A DNA stretch of 59,520 nucleotides from a virus. Its lineage: Duplodnaviria > Caudoviricetes. This document shows positions 1-51,463 of this stretch, piece after piece (position 1 is the stretch's first letter; every line of letters starts with the position of its first letter). The stretch lies in the IMG/VR virus record IMGVR_UViG_3300024265_001017, positions 1-59,520 of that record; one strand, 5' to 3'. A model generated the notes under the pieces. It searched no databases. It had not been told where the DNA came from and saw nothing but the letters and a program-made list of their open reading frames with translations. The position numbers and the translations under genes were made by a program.

Positions 1-41
1 CGTGTTGTCTTTTAGCAGTAGACCCGACTTTGGCTGGTTTG

Positions 42-185
42 TTACCTTCTTTGTTTTGGCCTGTCGAGCGCAATAGTAAACGCTTTCTTGGCCTTCGTAC
101 AGAAACGTTTTAGACCCTTGTATGGCGTGTCTCTAACCGTAAGCTCGCCTCTACATGTGAACGGGTCGTATTTTCTTTCGGTCAT
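42..185 (-). CDS. small basic hypothetical protein (47 aa, MTERKYDPF...)
   Basis: Internal ATG of ORF 42..242 is preceded by a GAGGGGG RBS. It is the first gene downstream of the RNA array. Confidence 0.6.
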   Translation of the reverse strand: MTERKYDPFTCRGELTVRDTPYKGLKRFCTKAKKAFTIALDRPKQRR

Positions 186-296
186 GTCATCAACCCCCTC
201 ATTGTTGAAACCGGGCAGTCCCAAGGCCCACAGTTGACCCACTCGCTACCGCCGTCGCGGAATCTGGTAAGCTCCCGTGTGGGGAGGGACTGCAAA

Positions 297-638
297 ATGT
301 TTGAGCTAACAAGCTACCTCCAGGTTTAATCTAGTGATAGCACTTAAAAGCTGCTCTCAGTGTAGTGGGACAGCTACTCCCAAAAGACTGCTCATTGCTT
401 TGTCGCTTACCAACCTAGCAGTTAGGTGTCCCTATTCTGACTGGGACATGTCAGCGTGTCACGTACAAACGCCCTGACACCGCGCCGCGCAACTATTGTA
501 CCCGTCTGTGGTAGTCTCGCCACTTAGACTCTCGGGGTATTTCAACCCCTGCCTCCCAAGCAGACTTACCCTCCAGTAGTATCCAGGCATTGCTTTTACC
601 GGCGTTGCCGAACGCGGGAGCTTGCTAGCTCAAAACAT
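297..638 (-). ncRNA. ~340-nt structured RNA domain with pseudoknot and T-loop-like hairpins
   Basis: 19-bp closing helix 297-315/619-638 (one bulge, one G-U on -). H-type pseudoknot at 427-454. Hairpins at 508-523 and 534-549. Confidence 0.65.
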
Positions 639-642
639 ATAG

Positions 643-707
643 AGGCGGCGCAAGGAATCGAACCTTGATTGAGGTCTGGGCGACCCCCTTTGCCAATTTA
701 ACCCGCC
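643..707 (-). ncRNA. tRNA-like element lacking a D-stem
   Basis: T-arm CAAGG-UUCGAUU-CCUUG, acceptor GGCGG/CCGCC (only 5 bp paired), hairpin GGGGUC-GCCCA-GACCUC, unpaired D region. Confidence 0.6.
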
Positions 708-2091
708 GAATCCTTGAGTACCTAGTGACCTATAGTTTCTGGTGTCTGTAACACCAGCGAACATGCGGGGCGAAAACCCCTACCACTTCCCTTCCTCAAG
801 GCAAAATCAATTGATAGCTGGCTGAGTTACACGCCGACAGAATCCGGCTCCTCTCCACTCCACATTACCTCACTCGCCACACACGGGGCAAGCTCTGCCC
901 ATCGTTCGGTCTCCGACCCCCATGTCAGAGTCCTACTAGAGAGGGCATCACTTGATACGCATGACACCGAGCTATCAAAACGCGCCGTGGGTACTCGCTC
1001 TCCACTTCCAGAGAGTTTGCCGATGCTCAGGACTTACCTTTGCGCTTTCCTCTTTGCCTGTCATCTTTTCGGGTACTAACTACAGCGCGTAGACCACCAT
1101 GAAACAAACATCTACACCCATGCGGCTTGGTCGTAGCCCGTAGAGGTTAGCATTGCCCTTCCCCACGAAAATGTATAAAATGTCCAAGCAAGCTGCCTAG
1201 CACCTAAACTCAAGGCTTTGAATCCCCATTCACCCGCTATTTAGGATGTTGGGTTGGAGAATCCGCTTGCTCGAAAACGTTCTGTCAGGAAACTATGCTC
1301 GAAACGTTGCCGTCCATACGCCGACAACACGACTCGCCGTGATGGGACGAGGAAGTGCCTGACAGTTAAAACTTTTATAAAGTGCTTGGTGGCGCTGCTC
1401 CATCTGCGAGTCCATCTGTGTAATCGGTCTCCGTTCGCATCTTGTTATGCCCAGCAGAGTGCCCGCGTTACCAAGCGGCTTTGTGCTTTTATAATCGAAC
1501 TGACCAGCGGGCCATCGTTGCACAGGTGATGTAATTTTAGGGCGCTTACCTGTTAGAAGACGTTGCCTATTATCCGCTGTTATCAGCTCGAAAGTGATTA
1601 TCAAAAGAGCAAGCGGCCCACAGTAGGTCTTGCGACCCCACCCCGGCGAAAAGTAGCTCACTTCCGCGCTCATAAACTTGGTCGAGCAGATGCTCTAGGT
1701 TACCCACTGTCGGCACCAAATCTTTGCGCTAAGTGCGGGAAACTGCATGGAACCTTCCAAGTCAAAGGGCGGTTACCCTAACCCTCGACCACTTGCCCCT
1801 CAGATAATCAGTTCTAAGCTTCAATAGATAACCCGACTGCCTACCCCGTAGCAGCCGCGGCCAAACCGGACAGCGCATAGGGCAGATTTTGTTTTCAAGG
1901 AAACTCAAGGCACCGCCTATTTCGCTCCGCGGAGCTACTTTGCGGTACTATTGTAGTCTTGCGGTCAATCGCAACACCGTCCAAGCGACCTCACGTTTCC
2001 GACCAGCTTCGTCTGTTTCAACTGCTTGGTGGCCGTTGCTTGGTTGTCGAGCTATCAATTAAAGCTCAGAACTTTTGTTATTGACTAGATT

Positions 2092-2519
2092 GTTTAGCAG
2101 GCAGTCTCCCGAGGTGCCCGCATCTCTATGTCAGGCATATTTTGTGCGGTATGTCGGTGGTCGCCGTCCTTACGTGTCAGCGGTTCAAAGGCGCTAAACA
2201 CATGTCAGACAATTTTCGGTGGCTTGACGGACTTACTACCTTCGCGCTTTCGCTTGAATGTGGTTGCCGTCTAAACTCTTCGACTTACTCCGCTCTGTTG
2301 CCTTGCTTTCAATGCTACCCTTGCTGCTTCACGGTCACGCTTTCAACGCTCGACCTTGCCCGCGGTGCGACGAATCGCTATCCATTATGACTTTTAAGCC
2401 AGCGGCTCTCTGTTGTAGTGTGACCACACACCGAAAACCTCGGTGCGGTCAGGAACTATCATATGGAGCTTTAGCTGGACTGCGCGAACTATTTACAGCC
2501 AAGAGGCTGCTTGCTAAAC
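2092..2519 (-). ncRNA. ~430-nt structured RNA domain
   Basis: Closing helix GTTTAGCA/TGCTAAAC. Nested helices 2109-2115/2437-2443 and 2213-2221/2429-2437. GCGA-UUCG-UCGC hairpin at 2367-2378 and two UUGAAAG T-loop-like motifs on -. Confidence 0.6.
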
Positions 2520-2694
2520 TTTCTAGTTTGTAATTCAATCGGCAGGTCAGACTTTCTTGTCAAGCCCTCTACTCAACTTTGAGGGTCTGTCCCTGTCGGG
2601 TCGCTACTAGCTCCCGATTGCCTTCCCACCGTTCCCCGTTTGTCTGGGGCTTTTCCTTCCCTTGAGCTTCTTTGGTTCTCTCTCTCTCGGTACA

Positions 2695-2700
2695 ATTATA
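2695..2700 (-). promoter_or_regulatory. candidate -10 box (TATAAT) for the RNA array
   Basis: Perfect TATAAT on - just upstream of the array. No good -35 at 17 bp spacing. Confidence 0.3.
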
Positions 2701-2894
2701 TCCTATCATATCTGGCCGGGAATACAAGCCGGGCCGTTAGCGCCTGCCGTGCGTATTTTCTCGATTTTTGAAAGATTTTTCGTCTTTTTCGGTAATACCG
2801 TGGGGGGTTTTAGTAGTCCCCCCGGTGGTTTAAGTTGTCAAAGTGCGTTATAATGTATGCACTATATATATACCCGCAAAGGAGGGAAAATAAC

Positions 2895-3443
2895 ATGCTT
2901 TACACAAAAAGTTTAGCCAAGGGTGACAAAGGCCCGAGCGTTGCGGATTTACAACGTCGAATTAACCACCATCATTTCAAAGTGGTCGGCCCAGATGACG
3001 GTCACTTTGGGGAGAATACAAAGATTGCCGTGGTACGTTTTCAAGATGCGTTCGGACTCGCACAAGATGGCGTAGTTGGCCCGAAGACCCAGAACAAGCT
3101 TATGGTTGGTGGTCAAGTCTCTGCTCATTTCAACATCTTCCACGATGTTCTTTACAGTCGAGGAAACGGTGACTTGATTCTACGCGGCGAGCTTATTCAC
3201 CGCTTAGAGGTAGTGCGCTCGATACTCGGCAACAAGCCAGTGATTGTAAACTCCTGTTTTAGGGACGAACGCTATAACTACATCATCGGTGGAGCAACCC
3301 GTTCCCAGCACAAGAAAGGAGCGGCTGGCGACATTGTTGTCATTGGTGTCAGTCCTACGGGCGTGGCAAATGCTGGAAGGCAGGCAGGCTTTAAGTTCAT
3401 CCAAGTTTATTCTGGATTTACGCACCTTGACATTCGCGCTTAA
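2895..3443 (+). CDS. endolysin: peptidoglycan-binding domain + M15-type Zn peptidase
   Basis: N-terminal L.KG.KG.SV..LQ...DG.FG..T..AV..FQ...GL..DGVVG..T (PG_binding_1). C-terminal SQH...A.DI...FTHLDIR. Start at MLYTK after an AGGAGG RBS. Confidence 0.9.
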   Translation: MLYTKSLAKGDKGPSVADLQRRINHHHFKVVGPDDGHFGENTKIAVVRFQDAFGLAQDGVVGPKTQNKLMVGGQVSAHFNIFHDVLYSRGNGDLILRGELIHRLEVVRSILGNKPVIVNSCFRDERYNYIIGGATRSQHKKGAAGDIVVIGVSPTGVANAGRQAGFKFIQVYSGFTHLDIRA

Positions 3444-3541
3444 ATCGTTTATAAACGGGAAGCATCATGTATCGAGAAGGGTTGTGAGCTGGCAGAAGTG
3501 GTGGGTGGGAATGTTTGCAACCAATTGGAAGGGGCAATAGG

Positions 3542-3733
3542 ATGACACTTAAAAAGAAGAGAATAGCAATCCGCGGTTTTAAGCACAAGAAAGTGCCTAG
3601 TCACCCGGTCGGGTGCCGCGGATTTCTGCATCCACTACGGAGCGACCCAGAGCATTATGTGGTTTGTGATTTTTGTCACTGGTTAATAGCTCTGCCGGTA
3701 GCCGAAAAATATGGGTATAGGGGAGAAGTATAA
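3542..3733 (+). CDS. small basic Cys/His protein
   Basis: RBS-led ATG, CDFC motif, abuts the next gene. Confidence 0.6.
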   Translation: MTLKKKRIAIRGFKHKKVPSHPVGCRGFLHPLRSDPEHYVVCDFCHWLIALPVAEKYGYRGEV

Positions 3734-3909
3734 TGGCAAATGACAGACCACAAGATGTACCATTGACATTAGCAGAATCAGCCATTGGGTTGCATGAATT
3801 TTATACATCACTCGTTGATGCTGGTTTTGATGAAGACCAAGCACTATACTTAGTTGCCGAATTGTTGAGTGGTCAAGCGGGAGGCGGCGGGTATGTCGAA
3901 GAGTACTAA
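3733..3909 (+). CDS. conserved small phage protein (58 aa; not in ORF track)
   Basis: MANDRPQDVPLTLAESAIGLHEFYTSLVDAGFDEDQALYLV...; TAATG coupling. The HE.Y..L..AGF...QAL motif is common in phage small proteins. Confidence 0.7.
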   Translation: MANDRPQDVPLTLAESAIGLHEFYTSLVDAGFDEDQALYLVAELLSGQAGGGGYVEEY

Positions 3910-4147
3910 GGAGCTGACTCGCTTCAATACTCCCGGCATCGTTCTTTGTATGCCCTACTGTGAAAACCTGTATTTGTGGAACACCGTACTCCAACAGGGC
4001 GAACCGGCGCACGTTCTCTTTCACTATCGCTGCATAAAATGTGGCGCGAACCACTTGGGCGTACTGGATGAATACTTTCTCGGCAAGAGCTGTCGAGAGA
4101 CTACAAGGATGGGGAATAATGAAAATCCACCAAGTTGTACACTGTAA
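3893..4147 (+). CDS. Zn-ribbon hypothetical protein
   Basis: GGAGG RBS; CMPYC and CIKC motifs. Confidence 0.55.
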   Translation: MSKSTKELTRFNTPGIVLCMPYCENLYLWNTVLQQGEPAHVLFHYRCIKCGANHLGVLDEYFLGKSCRETTRMGNNENPPSCTL

Positions 4148-4406
4148 GAAAGACCTCTATGATATCTATATAGGAAGACCCTCTAAGTGGGGCAACCCAT
4201 TCCCGCTTGAGGACGAGAGCCAACGCCTGCTTGTCATTGAGAAGTACAGGCAGTGGGTACTCAGCCAACCGGAACTTGTGGCAGCATTGCCCGAGTTGAG
4301 GGGCAAAGTGCTTGGTTGCTGGTGTGCCCCGCGGCCCTGTCATGGGGATGTGCTTGTTGAGCTTGCAAATCGGGGGAAGAAAAATGATATGTCCGTACTG
4401 CGATAG
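4119..4406 (+). CDS. DUF4326 family protein
   Basis: VVHCKK..YDIYIGRPSKWGNPF...LGCWCAPRPCHGDVL signature. Confidence 0.85.
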   Translation: MKIHQVVHCKKDLYDIYIGRPSKWGNPFPLEDESQRLLVIEKYRQWVLSQPELVAALPELRGKVLGCWCAPRPCHGDVLVELANRGKKNDMSVLR

Positions 4407-4484
4407 TGACGACACGGTTGAGATATTTGGTGACTACCGCGGTTGTAATTCTTGCAAAGCCAGTTGGAAACCACTAGATAATAC

Positions 4485-4513
4485 TTGACTTTCTTTCTGA
4501 TGGCCTTTACTGT
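4485..4513 (+). promoter_or_regulatory. candidate sigma70-type promoter
   Basis: TTGACT-17 bp-TACTGT upstream of the DUF932 gene. Confidence 0.4.
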
Positions 4514-4543: not shown

Positions 4544-5569
4544 ATGAAAGTGAGTAGAAACCGAAGACGAAACCAGCCGAGAGTACCCTGGCCCGATGTA
4601 CTTGGTCGCAAACAGGAGAACCCGGCGAGTGCTAGGGACGCTTATGCTGACCTCGGCACGTATGATGTAAGTCTGCGGGACGTTTACGTTGACAGTGGCG
4701 CGGACACAGATGGTTTGGTTAAGTACAAAGCGCCGAATCACCGTGCAATCGTTCGTGGCCCACTAGTGAGTGACGACGACCCAGCAGAACGCATCTTCAA
4801 CGTTGTCGGGAAGAAATACCGCCTGATAACTCCAGACAAAATTGTGAACCTATGGGACGAACACATAGGACGACCAGTTACTAGCATCGGTGCGCTCGAC
4901 CACGGAGAGAGATTCTTCCTGGCGACTCAGTTACCGACCATTAGAGTGGCTGGCGACGATGATAAGGGTATCGAGAATACCTTGGTGCTTGTCAGCCCAA
5001 TGAACGGTCGAGAGGCTATCATCGGAATGCTTGTCCCAGTGCGGCTTGTCTGCATGAATGGCATGGTGACGATGGGTGACGTTGTTGAGGCGTTCACACT
5101 AAAGCACTACCAGAACAACCTCAACCAGTTGCCGGAGTGGTTGGCTGGCGTGTACCAGCGAAACGTAGCGAACCTGGAACGCATGGAGCTTACTTGGAAT
5201 CGCTTAGCTGCTAAGACGGTTTCTAGTCAAGAAGTAAATGATACTCTGGATGTAGCGTTTCCACTGCCCGTTGCTATGCCCGATATGGACTTAGAGGCGC
5301 GGCAGAAACATGAGAGGCGCTGGGATAGCGCTCAGAGCCACCGTAACTTGACCAGAGAGTTCTTTGCTGGACGAGGTTCGGGGATGGACAACAAAGCGAA
5401 CAAGGGCACCGAGTACGGTCTGTATAACTCGATTGTCGAGCTTATAGACTGGGGTGCTGAGAAGAATGAAGGCGCTAAAATGGCTACCGTGCGCTCAGCC
5501 GCAATGGGTATGGCCGCGAAGAAGAAAACCCAAGTACTCAATCACTTGGTAGAGAGGATAGCGGCGTAA
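4544..5569 (+). CDS. DUF932 family protein
   Basis: VVG..Y, G.L..G.R.F, P.RLVC.NG and GT.YGLYN...E..D motifs. Confidence 0.85.
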   Translation: MKVSRNRRRNQPRVPWPDVLGRKQENPASARDAYADLGTYDVSLRDVYVDSGADTDGLVKYKAPNHRAIVRGPLVSDDDPAERIFNVVGKKYRLITPDKIVNLWDEHIGRPVTSIGALDHGERFFLATQLPTIRVAGDDDKGIENTLVLVSPMNGREAIIGMLVPVRLVCMNGMVTMGDVVEAFTLKHYQNNLNQLPEWLAGVYQRNVANLERMELTWNRLAAKTVSSQEVNDTLDVAFPLPVAMPDMDLEARQKHERRWDSAQSHRNLTREFFAGRGSGMDNKANKGTEYGLYNSIVELIDWGAEKNEGAKMATVRSAAMGMAAKKKTQVLNHLVERIAA

Positions 5570-9476: not shown

Positions 9477-11431
9477 TGTACCCTGAATTAACTCTCTATA
9501 GAGAGCTTGGTTGGACGGCTTTTCCCCTCGCTAAGAGGGGGAAGCGTCCGACTGGTGACATAAAGTGGAAGTCATTGCAGACAACGGCACCCGACGATGA
9601 CCTATATGACCACTACTGCCGAAAGATTGAGCGCGAGGACATGAACATCGGCCTGGTCACTGGCAAACTTAGCAACCTATATGTGGTAGACTTTGATTAT
9701 GCACATGGCGGAGCAGAGACATTAAAAGAGCTATGTGATGATGGCACCATTGACTTACTCACTACGCCGAGCGTCGATACCCCACACGGCAAGCATGTGT
9801 ACTTTGCATTCCCCGCTGTCGAACTGCGAAACACTGCGGCGCGACTGCCGGGACTAGATACACGCGGCGAGGGCGGTTATGTTGTAGCGCCCCCAAGCAA
9901 GCTAGAGGATGGAGAGTACAGATGGTTTACGCCGTTAGAGGAACCAATCGACCTACCGGAAGTGCCAGTGGCGCTAGTGGAACTGTTAAACAAACCCGCA
10001 GTGGTAGCTGCCACCGGCTCGAACGAGTACGCTCCGCTGCTTGAGGGAGTAAGCGAGGGAGGGCGTAACAATTCAGCAGCTATCTTGGCTGGTCACTTCT
10101 TCAACAAGGGACTGTCTGCCGATGTGGTGCTTACTATCCTAAGAGACTGGAATGGAAGAAACGACCCACCGCTCAAGGAGACAGAGCTTGAGTCAGTGGT
10201 CGCTAACATCAAAGGCAAAGAAGTTGAAAAACGGACAGACAACCACCCCTCGCCTACCCAGTTTGACATACCCGACATACCCATACTGAGTGACTACGTT
10301 GATTTGGCGAGCGGTGCCATCCCCGCGCCGAAGAGTTACCATGTGATGTGTTGCTTGAGCTTGCTGTCCACACTGCTCTCTGAGAACGTGGCCCTATCGC
10401 TCAAGTCCGATTGGTTGTACCCCAATCTATATATTATGCTCTTGGCAGACACTACTTGGACATATAAGACGACAAGCATGAAACGCTCTTTGGCCCTACT
10501 GGACAAGGTGTACCCAGAAGCAGTAATCGGTAGTGGTGGGTCACCCGAAGGACTGTTCTATGCGCTGTCGGAAAGACAGGGAATATCTTCTCTCTTCTTT
10601 AGAGATGAAGCGGTCGGTTTCTTCTACGAGGCAGGCCAGAAGAATTATATGAGCGGGATGCTTGACAGTCTGACAAAGTTCTACGATTGCCAGTCGGAGC
10701 GTCGAGTACTCGCTGGTGACCAACGCCAGAACCAAGTCGTTCGTACTGTACACATTAGAGACCCGCGACTGTCCTTGATGGCAGGCGGCACCCTGACTCG
10801 TTTCTTCGATGTGATTGACGAGGACAAGATAATGGATGGTTTCTTGCCACGCTTCCTCTTCTCAGTTAAGGAAGGGAATGCGAGCAGTCTCCGCCCGTTG
10901 GAGATGGCAGACAATAAGTACACGCGGGACAGTGACATTCTACTCCAAAATATTATGGGCTTGTATCTCAAGGGCAAGCGGCAGATGACAACGACTCAGC
11001 CCGTGTTGGACATGCACCATGAATACATGGTCGAGCTTGTCACTAGCGAGCTTTCCAGATATGGTGGACGAGATTTCGGCGGCGTGTACAACCGGCTGGC
11101 GATAAGTGTCTTAAAGGTAGCCATGATATTGGCTTGTACAGAGGGGAAGCAAAAGGTGACATTGACAAAGAAACATTTACAGAACGCCATCTTGCTTGCC
11201 CAAGAGTGGAAGCAATCGCTAGACTTCATAATCAAAACGGTTGGTAAGCCGAGCAAAGAACGCATGTACGACAAGGTGCTTGGGCATCTTACGGACTGTG
11301 GAGGAACGACTACACGCTCCGCACTGATGAAACTGTTCCACTTGGAGAGCAGAGAGATGACGCGCATCGTTGACACCCTGCTTGACCGAGAGCAGATAGT
11401 TTGTAACGGAAAGCTGGTGAGCATAAGATAA
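9476..11431 (+). CDS. bifunctional primase-polymerase with PriCT and DUF3987-like domain
   Basis: FPL....KRP, NIGL.TG..S...VVD.D, T..G.H.YF, D.RG.GGYVVAPPS; G..EGGRNN (PriCT); KTT, SPEGL, DE, GFLPRF. Confidence 0.9.
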   Translation: MYPELTLYRELGWTAFPLAKRGKRPTGDIKWKSLQTTAPDDDLYDHYCRKIEREDMNIGLVTGKLSNLYVVDFDYAHGGAETLKELCDDGTIDLLTTPSVDTPHGKHVYFAFPAVELRNTAARLPGLDTRGEGGYVVAPPSKLEDGEYRWFTPLEEPIDLPEVPVALVELLNKPAVVAATGSNEYAPLLEGVSEGGRNNSAAILAGHFFNKGLSADVVLTILRDWNGRNDPPLKETELESVVANIKGKEVEKRTDNHPSPTQFDIPDIPILSDYVDLASGAIPAPKSYHVMCCLSLLSTLLSENVALSLKSDWLYPNLYIMLLADTTWTYKTTSMKRSLALLDKVYPEAVIGSGGSPEGLFYALSERQGISSLFFRDEAVGFFYEAGQKNYMSGMLDSLTKFYDCQSERRVLAGDQRQNQVVRTVHIRDPRLSLMAGGTLTRFFDVIDEDKIMDGFLPRFLFSVKEGNASSLRPLEMADNKYTRDSDILLQNIMGLYLKGKRQMTTTQPVLDMHHEYMVELVTSELSRYGGRDFGGVYNRLAISVLKVAMILACTEGKQKVTLTKKHLQNAILLAQEWKQSLDFIIKTVGKPSKERMYDKVLGHLTDCGGTTTRSALMKLFHLESREMTRIVDTLLDREQIVCNGKLVSIR

Positions 11432-13689
11432 TGGCTAAGAAGAAAGAGCCTGGTTGCACTGGCTGTTCCTTTCGAGGGAACAAGCGACTACTGCCTATGA
11501 TTGCCGAAGATGACGGCAACGGCATCCCTCTACGGACATTGTTTGTTGGGGAGTCACCCACATGGGACGATATGGAAGCTGGTAAGCTGGGAGAGGAAGA
11601 GCTGTTCAAGCAGATGGTCGAACGGTTCAAAATCTCCCGCTATGCGTTTACCAACGTGGCGCTATGTAACCCACCCAAGGACAAGAAGGCAAAGGTTGCC
11701 GAGGTAGAGAGCTGTTCCATATTTCTCGATGCTTTCATAGAGACCTGGCGACCGAATCAAATAGTCTGCTTGGGCAAGCTTGCTGCCCGAGCGATACTTG
11801 GGAAAGAAGTAGCGGCCCAGAAGATGTATAAGCTCCGCGAGCAGTCGCCCATCAGAATCAACGACAACACAGAGCAAGCGGCGAACGTCTTTGTCACTTA
11901 CAGCCCGAAGGCAGTATACAAGCGCCCGAAACTGATAGACGACTTTGTGGCTGACTTTGACTTTATAATGCACCCGCCTGTCCCTACGTGGATAGACCCA
12001 GCAAGCGAGTTTAAGAAGTCCCGCGCCGAGTGGCTTGCTTGGTATGGTGGATACACAGAGAATGGCGAGACAAGAGGCGATATCTTTCCAGAGGCATTTG
12101 CTGAGCCGTGCGCCCTTGACTTTGAGACAACGGGACTGCATCCGATACGCAACCGGCCAGTCACCATAGCGCTGTCTTGGTGGGCAGAGGAGTCCATTGT
12201 CGTCAACCTACACGACATGACAGACGAGGAGATGGCGCTCACTCTCCAAGAGATAGACGATTTGATAAGGCTGAGTGCTTGCGTTGTCTATCACAATGCA
12301 AAGTTCGATATGAAATTCTTCAAGCAGTGGGGTGGAATCAAACCCCCGCTGGGATGGGATACAAAGCTCGCTGATTACACGTTGACAGGAAACCCAGAGG
12401 CTAGCCGTGGGCTAAAGTATCTAGCGCGTAGAAAGATGTTTGCGCCAGCGTACAATGAGGACATAGTATTCGACGGGACGACACCCATTGAAGACATGGC
12501 AACCTATAATGGACAAGATTCATCAACCACTCTCCAGCTCTATGATATACAGCGCAAGCTCCATCCAGACCTCGACTTGTTGGAACACCTATACGAGTCT
12601 ACCGACATGCTTGTAGACGCTGAGTTGACGGGAGCGCCGGTTAAAGAAGAGTGGCTGGACGAGCGAGCAACCGTGTTGACTGAGGAGACTGACAGGCTCC
12701 AGGCAGAGTTCGATGCCGAAGAATTGAACCCAAATAGTTATAAGCAGATACGCGCATACTTTGATATAAAAGAGTCGGACAAGGAAGCGCTCAAAGAACT
12801 GAAAGACCCAATGGCAGATAAGATTCTCGCATTTCGAGCGAGCGCCAAAGAGCTTAGCACATATGTAACCGGATTCTCAGAGCATATAGTAGACGGTAGA
12901 GTCCATACGGACTACATAGTGCCAGGTACGTTGACTGGCAGGCTCGCATCACGCGGCCCGAACATGCAGAACCTAAAGGCAAGCGACGAGGCAGAGCATG
13001 ACTACCAGGCGGTAGTAGCATCGAACGACCCCAGCAAAAGGGTTGTTCACTTTGACTATAGCCAGGTTGAGATGCGAATAATGGGTATCGAGTCACTAGA
13101 TGAACGCCTGCTCGACGTATTTCAGAGCGGTCGGAGCATTCATGCCGAACTTGCTATCGAGATAAACGGTGAGAACTATACCGACCGCCAGTACACCAAT
13201 GCCAAGTCTGCGAACTTCGGTATCATTTATGGCATCAGTCCGTTCGGACTATCGCATCTTATGAAATCGACAGAAGAGGAAGCAGGCGTGTACTTGAACA
13301 CTTGGTACGACATGTATCCCCAAGTGAGCGTTTGGCAGCGCAAGATTAGAAAGCTGATTAAGGAACAGGGTTACGTTGAGACTCCGTTTGGTCGGCGCAG
13401 GCGCTTTGACCTTGAGGGCTTGGTAGTCAAGCAGTCTACCATTTTCCGAGAGGGAATCAACTTTCCCATCCAGAGTTTTGCTTGTGACGTTTATCTATCG
13501 GCTGCTCTGGCTATCTGGAAAGAGACTGGTGTCTACCCCATCCAACTAGTGCATGACGAGCTTGTCTATGAGTTGGATGTTTACGGGATAGATGATACAA
13601 TGGATTACATTAGCTGGAAGATGCGAAAGGTCGGAGAAGACTTAACTGGCAACGTGATACCTATACCAGCAGAAGTAAAGGGGGCTTGA
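11431..13689 (+). CDS. family A DNA polymerase with N-terminal UDG-like domain and 3'-5' exonuclease
   Basis: C..C, FVGESP, TNV.LC.PP, CLG..A (UDG4-like); DFETTG, HNAKFD, YN..D (exo); TGRLAS..PNMQN, DYSQVEMR, AK..NFGIIYG, VHDE (pol). Confidence 0.92.
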   Translation: MAKKKEPGCTGCSFRGNKRLLPMIAEDDGNGIPLRTLFVGESPTWDDMEAGKLGEEELFKQMVERFKISRYAFTNVALCNPPKDKKAKVAEVESCSIFLDAFIETWRPNQIVCLGKLAARAILGKEVAAQKMYKLREQSPIRINDNTEQAANVFVTYSPKAVYKRPKLIDDFVADFDFIMHPPVPTWIDPASEFKKSRAEWLAWYGGYTENGETRGDIFPEAFAEPCALDFETTGLHPIRNRPVTIALSWWAEESIVVNLHDMTDEEMALTLQEIDDLIRLSACVVYHNAKFDMKFFKQWGGIKPPLGWDTKLADYTLTGNPEASRGLKYLARRKMFAPAYNEDIVFDGTTPIEDMATYNGQDSSTTLQLYDIQRKLHPDLDLLEHLYESTDMLVDAELTGAPVKEEWLDERATVLTEETDRLQAEFDAEELNPNSYKQIRAYFDIKESDKEALKELKDPMADKILAFRASAKELSTYVTGFSEHIVDGRVHTDYIVPGTLTGRLASRGPNMQNLKASDEAEHDYQAVVASNDPSKRVVHFDYSQVEMRIMGIESLDERLLDVFQSGRSIHAELAIEINGENYTDRQYTNAKSANFGIIYGISPFGLSHLMKSTEEEAGVYLNTWYDMYPQVSVWQRKIRKLIKEQGYVETPFGRRRRFDLEGLVVKQSTIFREGINFPIQSFACDVYLSAALAIWKETGVYPIQLVHDELVYELDVYGIDDTMDYISWKMRKVGEDLTGNVIPIPAEVKGA

Positions 13690-37419: not shown

Positions 37420-38850
37420 TTATTCCTCCTTTTTGTCTTCGATTTTCTCAATCAGTGCCAACGTAGTAGTCAACACTTTGAGTTCGTCTTTCTTCGTTTT
37501 CTTCTTGCCTTTGCCCTTCTTCTTGGGCTTTGGCTTAGTTGTTTTCTTAACGTCCGTATCCTTAAAAGCCTCTTTGAAACTACCTTTCTTCTTTTCGTCA
37601 ACTAAAGGCTTGGTTTCTATCTTAGCGGCTTTCTTTGCTTTCTTCTCGACACGTTTCTTGATTGTCTCTTTTACAAGCTCTTCCTTTGGAATCAAGCCAA
37701 GACGGACAGCCTCAGTCTTTGGAATCCGCCTGCCTCTGCCATACAATAGACGACCGTTCTCTATCACCGGCTTAGTCAGTCGATACCAGAGCTTATTTTG
37801 GTCTTGCATGTCATCCTCTCCCTTCTCAACTGTTATCGGTTTCGCTTTCTGTGCCTTGAGTGCCGTGGCAATGACTTTCTCAATTATCGAGAGGTCATTC
37901 TCCATCACCTGCTCAAAGCGTAAACCGGGTGGAAAACTCGGGAGTTGAATCTTCTCCAAAGTAGACCGCTTAGTGTTTGGAACAGTAATACCCCAGCCAC
38001 CTTCAACGTATATTTTAGCACAGTTCCCTGCATGAAGTCCAATTGTGGGAATGCCAGCGGCTAGATAATCCCATGTCTTGTTAGGTCGGCAATACTGGGT
38101 GTATGCGAATTGCCTAGCGTTCACGTTGTCTTTGGCATACGCTTGTAAGCCAGCGGTGTATTGACTCATTTCTTGAAGCAAGTCTTCGTAGGGTATCCAA
38201 CCGTGTGCAATTATACCCTCAGGCTTAGCAAGTTCCCGTACAGTAGAATACTGGTTCTTGCTTCCATAGATATGCACTGTCCAACCTGCTTTCACAAAAG
38301 CTTGGAAAATACTTCGATAGTTTCTGTAGCCATAGTTACCGCCACCAGTTCTAACAAGCCCACCAGCATAGACTAAGTTCTTGTCTCCAGGGTACTTGGG
38401 CTTTGGATGCCAAGCGAGCATCTGCTTGAGTGGGCGGAGATGAACAACCCCCACATTATCCATTTTGTAGTGCATGTCTTCTCGGAGATATTTCAAGTGG
38501 TCTTCACTAGTGAATATAACACCGGCTGCGTTTTCGCACATCTCTTTTTCAATCGCCAACTGTCGAACATTGAGCTTGGTTCGTAGGCTGTGAACGTCTT
38601 GCTCGATTAAAACGTAGGGGATGCCATACATCCGTGGCAGTTGGTAGTATTTTAACCAATCACCACGGCAGAAGATAAGCTCTGGCTTGAGCTTTTGAAC
38701 GTCTTCCTTCCAATCTTGAATCACCCCAACTGCTCTTGGCGAGCGTAGGGTGACTCCACCGTATCGAGCCTGTAAAAGCGTAAAGTACTTATGGGCAGAA
38801 CCAACCGCCCAACTGTGTTGCTGTAGATAGCAAAAAACGGGGTCATGCAC
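37420..38850 (-). CDS. GT-B glycosyltransferase with Lys-rich C-terminal tail
   Basis: LVYAGG, HGWIPY..L...M, PNK..DYLAAGIP.I; K-rich last ~100 aa. Confidence 0.75.
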   Translation of the reverse strand: MHDPVFCYLQQHSWAVGSAHKYFTLLQARYGGVTLRSPRAVGVIQDWKEDVQKLKPELIFCRGDWLKYYQLPRMYGIPYVLIEQDVHSLRTKLNVRQLAIEKEMCENAAGVIFTSEDHLKYLREDMHYKMDNVGVVHLRPLKQMLAWHPKPKYPGDKNLVYAGGLVRTGGGNYGYRNYRSIFQAFVKAGWTVHIYGSKNQYSTVRELAKPEGIIAHGWIPYEDLLQEMSQYTAGLQAYAKDNVNARQFAYTQYCRPNKTWDYLAAGIPTIGLHAGNCAKIYVEGGWGITVPNTKRSTLEKIQLPSFPPGLRFEQVMENDLSIIEKVIATALKAQKAKPITVEKGEDDMQDQNKLWYRLTKPVIENGRLLYGRGRRIPKTEAVRLGLIPKEELVKETIKKRVEKKAKKAAKIETKPLVDEKKKGSFKEAFKDTDVKKTTKPKPKKKGKGKKKTKKDELKVLTTTLALIEKIEDKKEE

Positions 38851-39892
38851 GATTCAGCACCTCGGCTATTTTTTCTCCAGCGTGACCATCACCGTAAGGG
38901 TTCTTGGCAGTGGCAGCGTTGATATAGTGGATGGGGCTTGTCAGGAGCATTCGCGCTACCTCGACCATCTTGTTAGCGTCTGGTGCAAGAAAGGCTCCGC
39001 CAGTAAGTCCTTCGGGACGTTCGGTTTTCTCTCTGAGTACAATGACTGGCTTGTTTAGTGCGGGAGCTTCCTCTTGCAATCCCCCGCTGTCCGTCATTAC
39101 CATATAGCACCTAGCAAGTTCCTTTAGGAACTCTAGGTAGTGCATAGGTTCGAGCAGGTCAATCCCCTGCTTGCCCTCTAATTCGTGCTTGAGTTGCTGT
39201 CCGGTAGCGTTCGGATGTGTCAGCACCCTAAACGTTTTCTCTGGAAACTCCCTGGCAAGCTTGAGGATACCGGCAGAATACATGCCAACCGGCGCGTTCC
39301 TTCTATGGAGCGTCACCAAAACAGTAGGGTCGAGAGTATGCTTGGGGGCCAACTCATTGACAGCATCAATGACTGTGTTGCCAGTTATGTGAATTTCGTT
39401 GGCATCTCCGTAAGGCATCAAGCGTCTTAGGTTGGCCGCTGCTTGCTTCGTCGGAGCAAAGTGTAGATTGGCTACTGAGGAAATAAACATGCGGTAGACT
39501 TCTTCGGGCCATGGCTCGTATCTACAGAATGACCGCAAGCCTGCCTCTACGTGAGCAATCGGGACTCCCTGGTGAAACGCAACCATGGCTGTAGCGTAAG
39601 CTGTCGCCGTGTCGCCCTGTACTATCACGCGCTCGGGATTGCAGAACTCGATAATCCAAGACATGTAACAGATAATGGCATCTACTGTAGTGAGCAGCCG
39701 TTGGCCTGGCTTCATAAGGTTAAGCTCTGTGTCGGGAGTCATCAAGCTTTTGTCCAGCAGCTCTTTGTGCTGCCCTGTACAGACCACGTACTTATCTTCG
39801 GTTGCTCTCACAACTGGGTACAACTTGATAAGCTCTGGCCGTGTTCCATAAACGAATAGGTTCTTTCCCTTCATGGGTTTTTTGGTAGTCAT
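38843..39892 (-). CDS. wecB: UDP-N-acetylglucosamine 2-epimerase (non-hydrolysing)
   Basis: GTRPE.IK, TGQH, VQGDT, HVEAGLRS, PEE, TGNTVIDA, TLHRR, TDSGGLQEEAP, TERPEG, NPYGDG. Confidence 0.93.
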   Translation of the reverse strand: MTTKKPMKGKNLFVYGTRPELIKLYPVVRATEDKYVVCTGQHKELLDKSLMTPDTELNLMKPGQRLLTTVDAIICYMSWIIEFCNPERVIVQGDTATAYATAMVAFHQGVPIAHVEAGLRSFCRYEPWPEEVYRMFISSVANLHFAPTKQAAANLRRLMPYGDANEIHITGNTVIDAVNELAPKHTLDPTVLVTLHRRNAPVGMYSAGILKLAREFPEKTFRVLTHPNATGQQLKHELEGKQGIDLLEPMHYLEFLKELARCYMVMTDSGGLQEEAPALNKPVIVLREKTERPEGLTGGAFLAPDANKMVEVARMLLTSPIHYINAATAKNPYGDGHAGEKIAEVLNRA

Positions 39893-40653
39893 CTTGTTTT
39901 GGGACAGTCAGTAAGCAGTTTGTCGTTTATCTTCTTAGCTGCCGTCAGCAACCCACGACCGATATCTGATTGTAACAAGATATCCAGGTCTTTCGGCAAG
40001 CACTTTCCACCGCCGCCCCTTCCTCCTTTATTAAATATTTCCATATATTTTCCGCTGTTGAATTTGTTGGCTCTTTGGGGAGCGATTACCTTGCTGTAGT
40101 CTATCTCCCGTTTCTCACAGAGGTCATACAGCTCATTGAAAAATACAAGCTTGATAAGGGGGTAGACATTCGATACAAGCTTAATCAGCTCAGCCTCTTT
40201 CGGCTCCACAAAGTAGCGTGGGCCTTCTAAGTTTGTAAAGAGAATCGTGTTGGCATAGCGGGAATATTCGTCATCGACTGCGCCAAAGACTATGTGGTCT
40301 GGTCTCAGAAAGTCACTGAGCGGCGAGTCTTCCCGTAAGAACTCGGGCATGAATACTATCTTCACGCCGGGATACATACTCTGTAACTGCTCGGTCTCTC
40401 CAACTTCGATAGTCGTCTTGATAATGACAAGCTTACCAACCATCTTTTCGATAAGCGTCCCATCACTAACTCGGCCATCTTTGTCATTAACACAATAGAA
40501 CAGCACATCCGCGTCCCGTACTGATTGACTGTCAGGAGATGCAACGAACCCCTTGTAGGGGTCATGGATTGTGAAGTCTGTGTGACCAAGCGCTTCGAGA
40601 CCATCATGGAGAGTGCTACCTACCATGCCGTGTCCCTGGATAAGAATTTTCAT
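39889..40653 (-). CDS. UDP-glucose/GDP-mannose dehydrogenase family protein (lacks C-terminal domain)
   Basis: G.G.VG, PEFLRE, AELIK...N, GG.CLPKD. Confidence 0.85.
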   Translation of the reverse strand: MKILIQGHGMVGSTLHDGLEALGHTDFTIHDPYKGFVASPDSQSVRDADVLFYCVNDKDGRVSDGTLIEKMVGKLVIIKTTIEVGETEQLQSMYPGVKIVFMPEFLREDSPLSDFLRPDHIVFGAVDDEYSRYANTILFTNLEGPRYFVEPKEAELIKLVSNVYPLIKLVFFNELYDLCEKREIDYSKVIAPQRANKFNSGKYMEIFNKGGRGGGGKCLPKDLDILLQSDIGRGLLTAAKKINDKLLTDCPKTR

Positions 40654-40689
40654 GTTATCGCCTATCTTTGGTTGGGTACATTACTGTTG

Positions 40690-40718
40690 ATTATACCTTA
40701 CGACCAGGCGGAAGTCCA
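40690..40718 (-). promoter_or_regulatory. sigma70-type promoter
   Basis: TGGACT-17 bp-TATAAT. Confidence 0.55.
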
Positions 40719-41428
40719 CAGAGACTCCGAACGTAAGGGTGCATCTCAATTTTCTTGCCCTTGCTTGCTGTCGTGATTGTGCTGCATCTGTTCAAAACCC
40801 AGTTGCTCTTGTGAATCACCTGTACCCACTCCCGACTCTCAAGGATGGTAAGCGGATAGTATCTCCACATCCAGGTATGGTTGCGCTCATAGACGTTCCG
40901 TAGGTCGCCTGCCCTCGAAACGAGCGTTGTGAAGGGGGATGTGCATTCTTCGTGATGAACCGTATCCTCGTAGAATGTTTTGTTGCGAACATCCAAGCGA
41001 TAGCCCAAGAACTCATAGAGTCCCGGCTCGGTCGCTAGTTCCTGCATATGCTCAATGTAGGTCGGCATCATTATATCGTCGTTATCTATACGAGTCATCA
41101 AAATCAACTCGTCCTCGTTTGCGGTATTTCTGATGAAGTCCATGTAAGCGGTTGTCATTGTAGTGGGCAGAGGAGCGTCACAATCTTCCCCAAAGAATTT
41201 AGCGCCTGGTACATCGACTTCGGGGTTGCCCAGAATCAACCAGCGGAAGTCTTGACACGTTTGTCCCAGAATAGAGGGCTTGGTAAACTGATTGAACAGC
41301 TCTATTCGGTGTTTCACATAGCCTTTTGGCCCCAGCTTAGCTCGGCCAAGAAAGTTTTGCTTGCCCTTTGCATTAGCGGCTTTTAGGTCTGGGCTGTAGT
41401 GAAACCGGGTGACAATGAAGTGCCTCAT
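40691..41428 (-). CDS. putative glycosyltransferase (rhamnosyltransferase-like, GT-A)
   Basis: HFIVTRF, R..LF..F..PS..GQT.QDF.W, TRIDNDD, QVIH..N. Confidence 0.8.
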   Translation of the reverse strand: MRHFIVTRFHYSPDLKAANAKGKQNFLGRAKLGPKGYVKHRIELFNQFTKPSILGQTCQDFRWLILGNPEVDVPGAKFFGEDCDAPLPTTMTTAYMDFIRNTANEDELILMTRIDNDDIMMPTYIEHMQELATEPGLYEFLGYRLDVRNKTFYEDTVHHEECTSPFTTLVSRAGDLRNVYERNHTWMWRYYPLTILESREWVQVIHKSNWVLNRCSTITTASKGKKIEMHPYVRSLCGLPPGRKV

Positions 41429-42003
41429 ACCAATACAACGCCAAAATTCACAGACGGGTGGAGGTACTTAACTTCAAACTTCTCAAAGTCGCCCTCAAGC
41501 TCGTCCCAGAATCTACGCATACCTGTCTTAACGCCGACTGGGTACTCTTCCAACCAAACGTCATCGAACAGCATAATGCCACCCTTTTTCATCTTGGGCA
41601 ACCAAGCGTGTGTATCTGACTTTACATCTTCATACAGGTGGTTGGCATCTATGAAGCAGATATCAACCGTGCCGTCTTCGACTTGTGCCGCGTACTCTGT
41701 AGCGTCACAAATCACACCCTCGACGTTATGGGCAAACAAGCGGTCTTCTATCTTTTGCGTTCGCTTGATATCGACGGTGATGATTCGCGCATCTTTTGTG
41801 CCGTGGCGGAAGTGTAACGCGCCGACACCCTGGTTGGTTCCCAACTCGACAATCAACTCTGGGTGAGTCTGTTGGCCGAGATGGACGAAAAGCTTGTAGT
41901 AGTGAAAAGAGTTTGGTCGCCTGATAAGGTCTCTGAGAACCTTCGGGCGCTCGTCTACTGTCTTTGTCAGCTCCACAAGCTCCATAAATCGTTCTCTGTC
42001 CAT
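41425..42003 (-). CDS. class I SAM-dependent methyltransferase (Methyltransf_24-like)
   Basis: IVELGT..G, D..FIDA.H.YE.V..D...W...M..GG...FDD. Confidence 0.88.
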   Translation of the reverse strand: MDRERFMELVELTKTVDERPKVLRDLIRRPNSFHYYKLFVHLGQQTHPELIVELGTNQGVGALHFRHGTKDARIITVDIKRTQKIEDRLFAHNVEGVICDATEYAAQVEDGTVDICFIDANHLYEDVKSDTHAWLPKMKKGGIMLFDDVWLEEYPVGVKTGMRRFWDELEGDFEKFEVKYLHPSVNFGVVLV

Positions 42004-50674: not shown

Positions 50675-50703
50675 ATTATATCACTTGCCACCCTTACTAT
50701 CAA
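50675..50703 (-). promoter_or_regulatory. strong sigma70-type promoter for the tRNA-Gly-like RNA and terminase
   Basis: TTGATA-17 bp (ending TGA)-TATAAT; predicted +1 at about 50668-50667. Confidence 0.7.
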
Positions 50704-51463
50704 TCTTCCGCTTCGGATACTCAACGGTGAGCGGTTTCACGTATGTCATAATCCGCTCCCGCTCCTTGCCAGTCGCAAGAACATAAACGTACCGCCACTT
50801 GGGGTTGGTTCGGTTCTCCTTCCAACCGGCTGCAAGGAACTTTTGCCGTAGTTGGCTCCACGATAGGTTCGGGCATTTGTTAATCTTCGTGTCGTGTATA
50901 ATCTTCTGGTCGTAAATTTTGCCGTTTGGATGTATGAGCTGAGTGGTACGCCCGCCCTTCCCTATACAAATCCAATTGGTCGCTTGATATAGGGTTCCTA
51001 TTTCGCCTGCATCGGTGTCCGAGTAGGCTATCGCTATTTTGCGGCCTTTCTTTTTCTCCATCTTCAATGAGTAAGAAATGAGCTTGCTTCCCGTGCCCTT
51101 CGGTGTCCAATGGGTACATGCACCGCGGGCAAGGTAGGCCATCTCTCGCTGGTCAACCCCCAATTGCTCCGCTACCCGGTTCCCAGCCGGGCTACCAAAG
51201 CAGCAAACACCACCGCAGTAGTACTTATCGAAGAATATACCGTAGTATGTACGGCAAATAGGTAGTGTACCAAGCCATTCGTAGTGCAAAATGATTTTCT
51301 GGGCCACTTTACGGGTGGTCTGCCTCACTTTCGCTGATTTAAGGTGAGGTTCACCGCTTGGACGGGGGGCAACGTCCGCTTTCGACGGGTCTGCGGCGAT
51401 TTGCTCCCGTATTTGGCGCTGATACGCCTTATTTGACGCTTTCTCCCTAAAAGTCTGTCCCAT
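50681..51463 (-). CDS. mom: Mom-family (GNAT-fold) DNA adenine hypermodification protein
   Basis: G...FG.P, L.R......P....S.LI..SL, AYSD...GE.GT.YQATNW..IG, K.RYVY.L, YPK. Confidence 0.8.
   Translation of the reverse strand: MGQTFREKASNKAYQRQIREQIAADPSKADVAPRPSGEPHLKSAKVRQTTRKVAQKIILHYEWLGTLPICRTYYGIFFDKYYCGGVCCFGSPAGNRVAEQLGVDQREMAYLARGACTHWTPKGTGSKLISYSLKMEKKKGRKIAIAYSDTDAGEIGTLYQATNWICIGKGGRTTQLIHPNGKIYDQKIIHDTKINKCPNLSWSQLRQKFLAAGWKENRTNPKWRYVYVLATGKERERIMTYVKPLTVEYPKRKIDSKGGK

Follow-up and report, generated by a model that had tools for sequence, protein, structure and literature searches.

Does the minus strand of positions 297–638 of a subsurface phage genome encode a functional RNA, and if so, of what kind? 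The stretch lies in IMG/VR record IMGVR_UViG_3300024265_001017, a linear sequence of 59,520 bases whose completeness CheckV estimates at 88%. We analyzed the whole record, which we will call the window. A preliminary description of this DNA had proposed an elaborate RNA domain with a 19-bp closing helix, a pseudoknot, overlapping pairings, and two T-loop-like hairpins, and had suggested that it was a ribozyme or a tRNA-binding RNA. All of the sequence strings that it quoted are present on the minus strand, at the right coordinates.

The record is from a novel tailed phage whose source is uncultured and from the subsurface. Pfam searches with 30 of its proteins identified a capsid protein, a prohead protease, a portal protein, and Mu-F-like, tape-measure-like, and Gp10-like baseplate proteins, as well as a glycosyltransferase/epimerase cluster, a Mom-like protein, a primase-polymerase, a PD-(D/E)XK nuclease, and an NT5C-like nucleotidase. 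The endolysin has PG_binding_1 and Peptidase_M15 domains. This set is ordinary for a tailed phage, and no RNA-related family was found among the 30 proteins. By sequence comparison, the phage has no close relative in GenBank. A 752-aa ORF (11431–13689) matches the annotated family A DNA polymerases of GenBank phages, with at most about 31% identity among the best 25 places listed, and a blastn search of 1–4500 against GenBank phages gave zero DNA matches. (Elsewhere in the window, the minus strand at 37420–42003, directly downstream of the capsid gene, has a sugar-modification cluster: a glycosyltransferase-like protein, a UDP-GlcNAc 2-epimerase, a fragment of a UDP-glucose/GDP-mannose dehydrogenase, a rhamnosyltransferase-like protein, and a methyltransferase. 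Also on the minus strand, 50681–51463 encodes a Mom-family protein (E = 1.8e-23), which is a candidate DNA-modification enzyme, beside a weak ParB_N-like protein.)

The stretch 297–638 is non-coding. Across 243–1253, none of the six frames contains an ORF of at least 50 aa, and on the minus strand from 2693 to 243, there is no credible ORF under three genetic codes. (Reading TGA as tryptophan or TAG as glutamine opened no convincing frame in the ORF-free stretch.) The longest ORF within 243–2834 would encode 126 aa, and in our own reading of the alignment, this frame is interrupted by a stop codon in L010, a related locus from metagenome contigs. The main features are:

42–185, minus strand: gene for a strongly basic protein of 47 aa, downstream of the domain
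297–638, minus strand: the flagged domain, multi-branched and closed by a long helix (MFE of −126.7 kcal/mol)
644–707, minus strand: degenerate tRNA-like element, with a T-arm at 667–651 and 5 acceptor-like base pairs (707–703/648–644)
708–2693, minus strand: ORF-free structured RNA made up of helix-closed modules (no credible ORF; consensus fold with L010)
1810–2073, minus strand: helix-closed module of 264 nt with a closing helix of ~27 bp, absent from L010
2700–2727, minus strand: candidate sigma-70 promoter, with the −35 box at 2727–2722 and an extended −10 box at 2708–2700
2895 onwards, plus strand: endolysin gene, the first of the plus-strand genes
47.8–48.0 kb: two ordinary tRNA genes (Thr and Gln), found by both Rfam and ARAGORN

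The −35 box, the 16-nt spacer, and the extended −10 box of the candidate promoter are common to the window and L010, as read by eye from their alignment; the promoter scan did not report the site at 2727–2700. At the other end of the ORF-free region, the 47-aa protein has two homologues of 47–49 aa at 57–67% identity, a net charge of about +9 (by hand count), and no family in Pfam. It is a candidate RNA-binding partner.

Most of the comparative evidence concerns the sequence upstream of the domain. The DUF932 protein encoded at 4544–5566 has 20 homologues (43–100% identity), and a search of metagenome contigs with the 20-sequence alignment of this family gave 10 loci. L010 is the only one of the 10 that reaches the ORF-free region; its positions 1–1500 correspond to 930–2895 of the window, and it ends near window position 930. 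Islands of 70–88% nucleotide identity alternate with stretches that cannot be aligned; the identity is 70–88% in the upstream RNA blocks versus 66–76% in the neighboring genes. Between the window and L010, hairpins vary on both sides, and GNRA-type loops are kept (for instance, GCAA becomes GUAA). The consensus fold of the two sequences, across five blocks, has an energy of −151.7 kcal/mol, as compared to −58.7 ± 7.1 for column shuffles, and none of 100 shuffles reached it. The fold includes 24 compensatory pairs, as compared to 14.2 ± 3.2 in shuffles (0 of 100 reached 24). Since both the consensus energy and the number of compensatory pairs exceed those of shuffles, the ORF-free stretch upstream of the domain is a conserved structured RNA, read from the minus strand. 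The consensus energy for the plus strand is only −115.9. The minus strand also agrees with the GC skew, with the direction in which the T-arm motif reads, and with the gene that lies downstream.

This upstream RNA appears to be modular. The strongest thermodynamic signal in the region is from the module at 2073–1810 (z = −4.55). The distance from a conserved CTGACATA match to the next conserved block is 319 nt in the window (2127 to 1808) versus 51 nt in L010 (682 to 631), and by eye, there is no flanking duplication around the module. Its gain or loss would resemble that of the expansion segments of structured RNAs. A search of sequencing runs listed no RNA run with this sequence and one DNA run, X1, from a subsurface metagenome that may be the window's own source. 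In X1, the summed contig depth peaks at 1901–2000 (94, versus about 11–15 nearby), so the center of the module is common to more abundant relatives.

Several other observations concern the same region. The adjacent module at 1596–1809 (minus strand) has the best long-range helix in 1–3000 (gapped score of 57, which 0 of 60 shuffles reached); this module is conserved in L010, which lacks a 42-nt hairpin insertion that is present in the window. The word CTGACAYR has 8 matches in the window, on both strands, with 5 of them on the minus strand at 447–2208; the copy at 2127–2134 is conserved at 682–689 of L010. We considered recurrent words as a signal and rejected them: the repetition of short words in the ORF-free region is no higher than in 7 coding controls. 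We also set aside the z-scores of sliding 300-nt windows as uninformative. Just 1 of the 17 was below −2, and the two that cover the domain had scores of +0.19 and −0.21.

The domain shows local similarity to two of the upstream modules. The alignment to 2527–2084 has a score of 34 (reached in 0 of 100 shuffles) and the alignment to 2078–1805 has a score of 28 (1 of 100). These similarities suggest that the domain belongs to the same RNA system. No convincing common structure emerged when 392–322, its look-alike at 2444–2372, and L010 were aligned three ways. (On the minus strand, 385–349 and 2437–2401 are similar over about 37 nt, which hints at the duplication of a sub-element within the RNA.)

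Within the domain, which we number on the window but which would be read from 638 down to 297, the following parts can be distinguished:

619–638, minus strand: 5' strand of the closing helix (P1), within a block that is kept in the contigs of three relatives
583–641, minus strand: conserved core block 1, with the 5' strand of P1, the 5' strands of the inner helices (617–611 and 608–604), and a hairpin at 602–583
501–582, minus strand: variable arm with both of the "T-loop-like" hairpins, bounded by a joint (500 to 583) in a relative
402–500, minus strand: conserved core block 2, with the 3' strands of the inner helices, the hairpin region at 480–427, and the start of the 3' arm
427–458, minus strand: variable hairpin and pseudoknot candidate, from shuffles and the substitutions in a relative
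316–422, minus strand: long irregular 3' arm in the MFE fold, including the overlapping pairings at 362–382
297–315, minus strand: 3' strand of P1, from the inverted repeat and the MFE fold

The predicted energy of the domain corresponds to a z-score of −2.74, and none of 100 shuffles was as stable. The plus strand has a z-score of −2.89. Both strands fold alike by this measure, so energy does not choose the strand. We tried to use wobble-compatible substitutions in relatives to choose the strand, and we rejected this test as well: the results were mixed, with about 4 substitutions for the minus strand versus 2 for the plus strand (hand counts).

The fold of the domain is robust. In the MFE fold, P1 has 6 + 13 base pairs and a 1-nt bulge (638–633/302–297 and 631–619/315–303), and inside it are the junction helices 617–611/486–480 and 608–604/493–489. 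Across five contexts of 356 to 1001 nt, the mean pair probability of P1 was 0.90, 0.89, 0.88, 0.87, and 0.68. P1 is also the longest inverted repeat in 1–3000, with arms of 19 nt (300–318/616–634) that are 89% complementary. As a bare helix, P1 is within chance for 3 kb. With gapless Watson-Crick scoring, it was equalled in 7 of 100 dinucleotide shuffles of 1–3000, and with gapped scoring, the best helix in a shuffle averages 44.2 ± 4.4, while P1 scores about 39–41 (by hand). So the closing helix of the preliminary description is stable in every context that we tried, but its length is not beyond chance.

Is the domain conserved? Our comparative data are from run X1, whose Logan contigs were compared to the window at 80% likeness, with changes as listed. 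A contig with a depth of 21.5 covers 402–500 and 583–641, and it skips or replaces 501–582. The joint (500 to 583) skips 82 nt and has a side of 59, although at 80% likeness joints can be artefacts. The skipped segment matches a predicted arm, which is closed by 581–578/502–499, to within 2 nt. The match to this contig ends at 402 and at 641. Within 402–500, nine changes are listed for the contig, all of them inside 438–457. Block 583–641 is covered by three contigs, and the only changes listed are at 589, 593, 597, and 607. Thus, blocks 402–437, 458–500, and 608–641 have no change among those listed, and the relatives' flanks are at under 80% identity. The retained blocks hold the 5' strand of P1 and both strands of the inner junction helices. 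A conserved core with a variable periphery is what a functional fold predicts, and the contigs are consistent with this. None of the listed substitutions in the domain form a clean compensatory pair: two break stem 1 of the proposed pseudoknot, two break its stem 2, and those at 589 and 597 disrupt a terminal pair.

Beyond run X1, we found no homologue of 297–638 among the loci from our searches of viral, genome, and metagenome contigs. Viral contigs gave no relative with the endolysin, the DUF932 protein, or the 20-sequence DUF932 alignment as the query. Among five DNA patterns that were searched against viral contigs, four had 0 hits and one had 2 hits, in L012 and L013. Both hits (L012:48–65 and L013:10873–10890) are exact 18-mer matches to the domain with nothing beyond, and we treated them as chance. 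(L012 and L013 are IMG/VR contigs, and in the region that was read, they hardly differ from one another.) Two scans of genome contigs gave 0 relatives.

We then compared the detailed elements proposed for the domain to the data. The putative H-type pseudoknot at 427–454 has two crossing stems, of 5 bp (stem 1) and 6 bp (stem 2), with loops of 1, 1, and 4 nt, which is the pattern of an H-type motif; the loops look sterically feasible, judging from the geometry of known pseudoknots. Compact pseudoknots of this class appear in just 10 of 1000 shuffles of the domain. When the nine substitutions in the relative's contig were applied to the window by a script, stem 1 went from 5/5 pairs to 3/5 and stem 2 went from 6/6 to 4/6, with no compensatory change in register in this single relative. 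Another helix, 479–474/454–449, has 6/6 pairs in both the window and the relative, and a register-shifted hairpin, 458–452/443–437, has 5/7 pairs in the window and 7/7 in the relative. The region has many GUGUCA- and UGACAC-like words, which are mutually complementary and permit several alternative folds. We read 458–427 as a variable hairpin region, with the specific pseudoknot unsupported in the one relative. The complementarity is real, and rare by chance, but in the one relative that can be read, both stems have lost pairs.

Similarly, UGGGA/UCCCA and GUAG/CUAC, the overlapping pairings at 362–382, are both present, but the loops are 0 nt on two sides, so we judged these pairings to be mutually exclusive alternatives and not a knot. 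The MFE fold adopts GUAG/CUAC and not UGGGA/UCCCA. As for the two "T-loop-like" hairpins, 549–534 is in the MFE fold, but 523–508 is not, and both are in the arm that is skipped or replaced in the relative. A T-loop is defined by the geometry of five loop nucleotides, with a reverse-Hoogsteen U-A pair and a gap for stacking; the loop of 549–534 could equally be a GAAA tetraloop that is closed by a U-U mismatch.

The adjacent tRNA-like element (644–707) turned out to be weak. It has a good T-arm, whose hairpin has a 7-nt UUCGAUU loop and lies 13 nt upstream of the domain, and it has 5 of the 7 acceptor pairs, an anticodon-like loop of 5 nt, and no room for a D-arm. Both ARAGORN and the Rfam tRNA model (RF00005) miss it, even at E ≤ 10 in a search of this genome alone; they find only the two genes at 47.8–48.0 kb, which are 47 kb distant from the domain. 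The element's best match is to mascRNA-menRNA, across 644–694, with 22.6 bits (E = 0.035) as compared to a threshold of 42.5. The z-score of its fold is −0.86. Since the tRNA model and ARAGORN miss it, the element is a degenerate relic or mimic of a tRNA. The match to one relative's contig ends at 641, and the element may therefore be absent from at least one relative. Processing at this element to form the 5' end of the domain is possible.

We compared the domain to known families of RNAs. Across the whole record, Rfam at gathering scores identified the two tRNAs only, and with cmscan at E ≤ 10, the sole match near the domain was the mascRNA-menRNA match on the adjacent element. Searches of the 59.5-kb record at E ≤ 10 gave no matches to the models for GOLLD (RF02032) or the group I intron core (RF00028), and the domain is in ORF-free sequence and not inside a gene, where a group I intron would be expected. 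There were also no matches to ROOL (RF03087) at E ≤ 10, in a search that was silent for all 14 control genomes as well and therefore carries little weight. The model for bacterial RNase P (RF00010) had no matches and no first-look candidates, whereas 8 of the 14 control genomes scored above the cut-off for this family in the same search. There was no tmRNA, including permuted forms, according to ARAGORN or the RF00023 model (0 matches at E ≤ 10), and no match to the group-II-D1D4-1 model (RF01998). The domain does not match any known family, whether in Rfam at E ≤ 10 or in the single-family searches; a confident hit would have refuted the preliminary description, and there was none.

By layout, the closest analogue would be GOLLD, although membership in that family fails the model test. 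As described in PMC12286853, GOLLD RNAs are found in phage and have a variable 5' region, a linker that sometimes contains tRNAs, and a conserved 3' region. Here, a 5' part that is variable and modular is followed by a tRNA-like element and then by a 3' domain whose core is conserved, and both RNAs are phage-borne, large, and multi-branched. Unlike in GOLLD, the linker element is not a recognizable tRNA, and the ORF-free stretch has about three times the length. PMC12286853 also describes ROOL as an ornate RNA of phages and prophages that is frequently located close to tRNA islands, has predicted pseudoknots, and is not known to have a protein partner; in our phage, the real tRNA genes are 47 kb away. 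A tRNA-like element also lies between long structured segments of RNA in MALAT1/MEN-beta with mascRNA (RF01684). In such a layout, a tRNA-like element would allow the ends to be formed by RNase P or RNase Z. But the mascRNA family is from vertebrates, and the similarity here is limited to the T-arm and the acceptor-like stem. Finally, the stable RNAs of phage T4 are co-transcribed with a tRNA cluster and are matured from a common precursor; their function is not known. They are small, at about 120–140 nt, whereas the structured RNA of our phage extends over about 2.4 kb and has a single, degenerate tRNA-like element.

Our literature searches turned up no account of such an RNA. A 2023 survey of structured RNAs in IMG/VR (PMC10690425) reports candidates that average 67 nt and that were required to match at least three IMG/VR regions. 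Because we found no relative in viral contigs, our RNA is unlikely to be in that survey.

What, then, is the domain? We lean towards the view that it is the 3' module of a new, modular non-coding RNA of phages, or of a long leader. A narrower reading, which is unlikely but deserves to be weighed, is that the domain, or perhaps the whole 2.45-kb stretch, is a cis-acting leader: a structured 5' UTR of the leftward operon that controls read-through, stability, or translation of the 47-aa gene and beyond. The 47-aa protein might possibly bind it for autoregulation, by analogy to the leaders of ribosomal-protein operons. The end of the domain and the start codon of this conserved small gene, which is on the same strand, are 112 nt apart, with no terminator-like site found between them, and another hairpin arm (293–215) directly precedes the gene's ribosome-binding site. 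However, the domain itself does not reach or overlap the ribosome-binding site, and the competing pairing that might act as a switch (628–612 with 280–264) has an ensemble probability of 0.00. A leader of 2.45 kb would also be very unusual. We consider it equally unlikely that the domain is a chance fold in a fast-evolving spacer, with the sort of pairings that any G-rich sequence of 340 nt offers. This would fit with the chance-level length of P1, with the domain's moderate z-score, and with the abundance of complementary words that permit alternative folds. It would not explain why the blocks at 402–437, 458–500, and 608–641 have no listed changes while the relatives' flanks have fallen below 80% identity, or why the replaced segment coincides with a predicted arm, and the surrounding region is demonstrably structured RNA.

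Two other explanations seem very improbable to us. In one, the fold is incidental and the selected or mobile unit is DNA: a small mobile element with inverted repeats, an inverted repeat that is bound by a protein, or a block from mosaic recombination. An inverted repeat of 19–23 bp does bound the domain, the cores of its arms are in part palindromic, the z-scores of the two strands are equally good, the relative's match stops at the arm's outer edge (641), and the relatives carry differing modules. Near-identical short blocks amid divergent sequence could come from mosaic recombination between phages. But we did not see a target-site duplication at either end of the domain, and the module that is missing from L010 also lacks a duplication, by eye. 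Furthermore, a search of the window for the 21-nt arm, allowing up to 3 mismatches, finds no second copy, the 13-nt core of the arm is found at the two arms only (and in 0 of 10 other loci), and conservation inside the domain tracks the predicted junction and not the ends. The other explanation, which we rank as the least probable, is the original proposal: a ribozyme, or an RNA that binds tRNA, with a 5' end that is created when the tRNA-like element is processed. Core blocks that are almost invariant in sequence, and not just in pairing, are as expected for a catalytic or ligand-binding core, and the rarity of the compact pseudoknot and the nearby T-arm-like hairpin with its UUCGAUU loop would also fit. 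However, the features that supported this proposal failed: the pseudoknot is not kept in the relative, the proposed T-loops are within the replaceable arm, and the tRNA-like element fails the tRNA model and may be missing from the relative whose match ends at 641. Nor did we find matches to ribozyme or intron families.

In our preferred reading, as the 3' module of a larger RNA, the minus strand from 638 to 297 would fold as a self-contained module and would form the 3' end of a protein-free RNA of roughly 2.45 kb. This RNA would be transcribed leftward as a single transcript from the promoter near 2727–2700, divergently from the endolysin gene, and transcription would run into the gene for the small basic protein. 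P1 would link the two ends of the module. The junction core (583–641 and 402–500) would be the selected and presumably functional part, while the arm at 501–582 and the hairpin at 458–427 would be replaceable periphery. By analogy to the ornate RNAs of other phages, the molecule probably acts as RNA, either as a scaffold or as a platform for binding a protein or RNA partner, with a cis-acting role as the main alternative. Processing at the degenerate tRNA-like element upstream might free the domain from its precursor. Against our reading, the listed substitutions are not compensatory, P1 alone is within chance, the plus strand folds equally well by z-score, the two sliding windows over the domain score near zero, and the comparative data for the domain come from one run.

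We also considered a more specific version of this proposal, which we regard as possible but doubtful. There might be a class of giant modular phage RNAs, of about 2.45 kb and not described before, in which the domain is the conserved 3' core. Their helix-closed modules would come and go as whole units from one related phage to another, with a degenerate tRNA-like processing signal in between. Such an RNA would act as RNA (for instance, it might self-assemble, serve as a scaffold, or catalyze a reaction), possibly with the 47-aa basic protein as a partner. According to PMC12286853, recent work has shown that GOLLD and ROOL form cages made of RNA only, whose function is still unknown.

If our proposal is correct, then this phage from a subsurface community would provide a further, and much longer, example of a large phage RNA. 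Very few RNAs of this kind (large, structured, and non-coding) have so far been described from phages. If the RNA is instead a leader, then it would be an unusually long and elaborate one. As a non-coding RNA, a protein-free stretch of 2.4 kb in a 59.5-kb phage would be a new subject for studying the structure of such RNAs and their role in infection.
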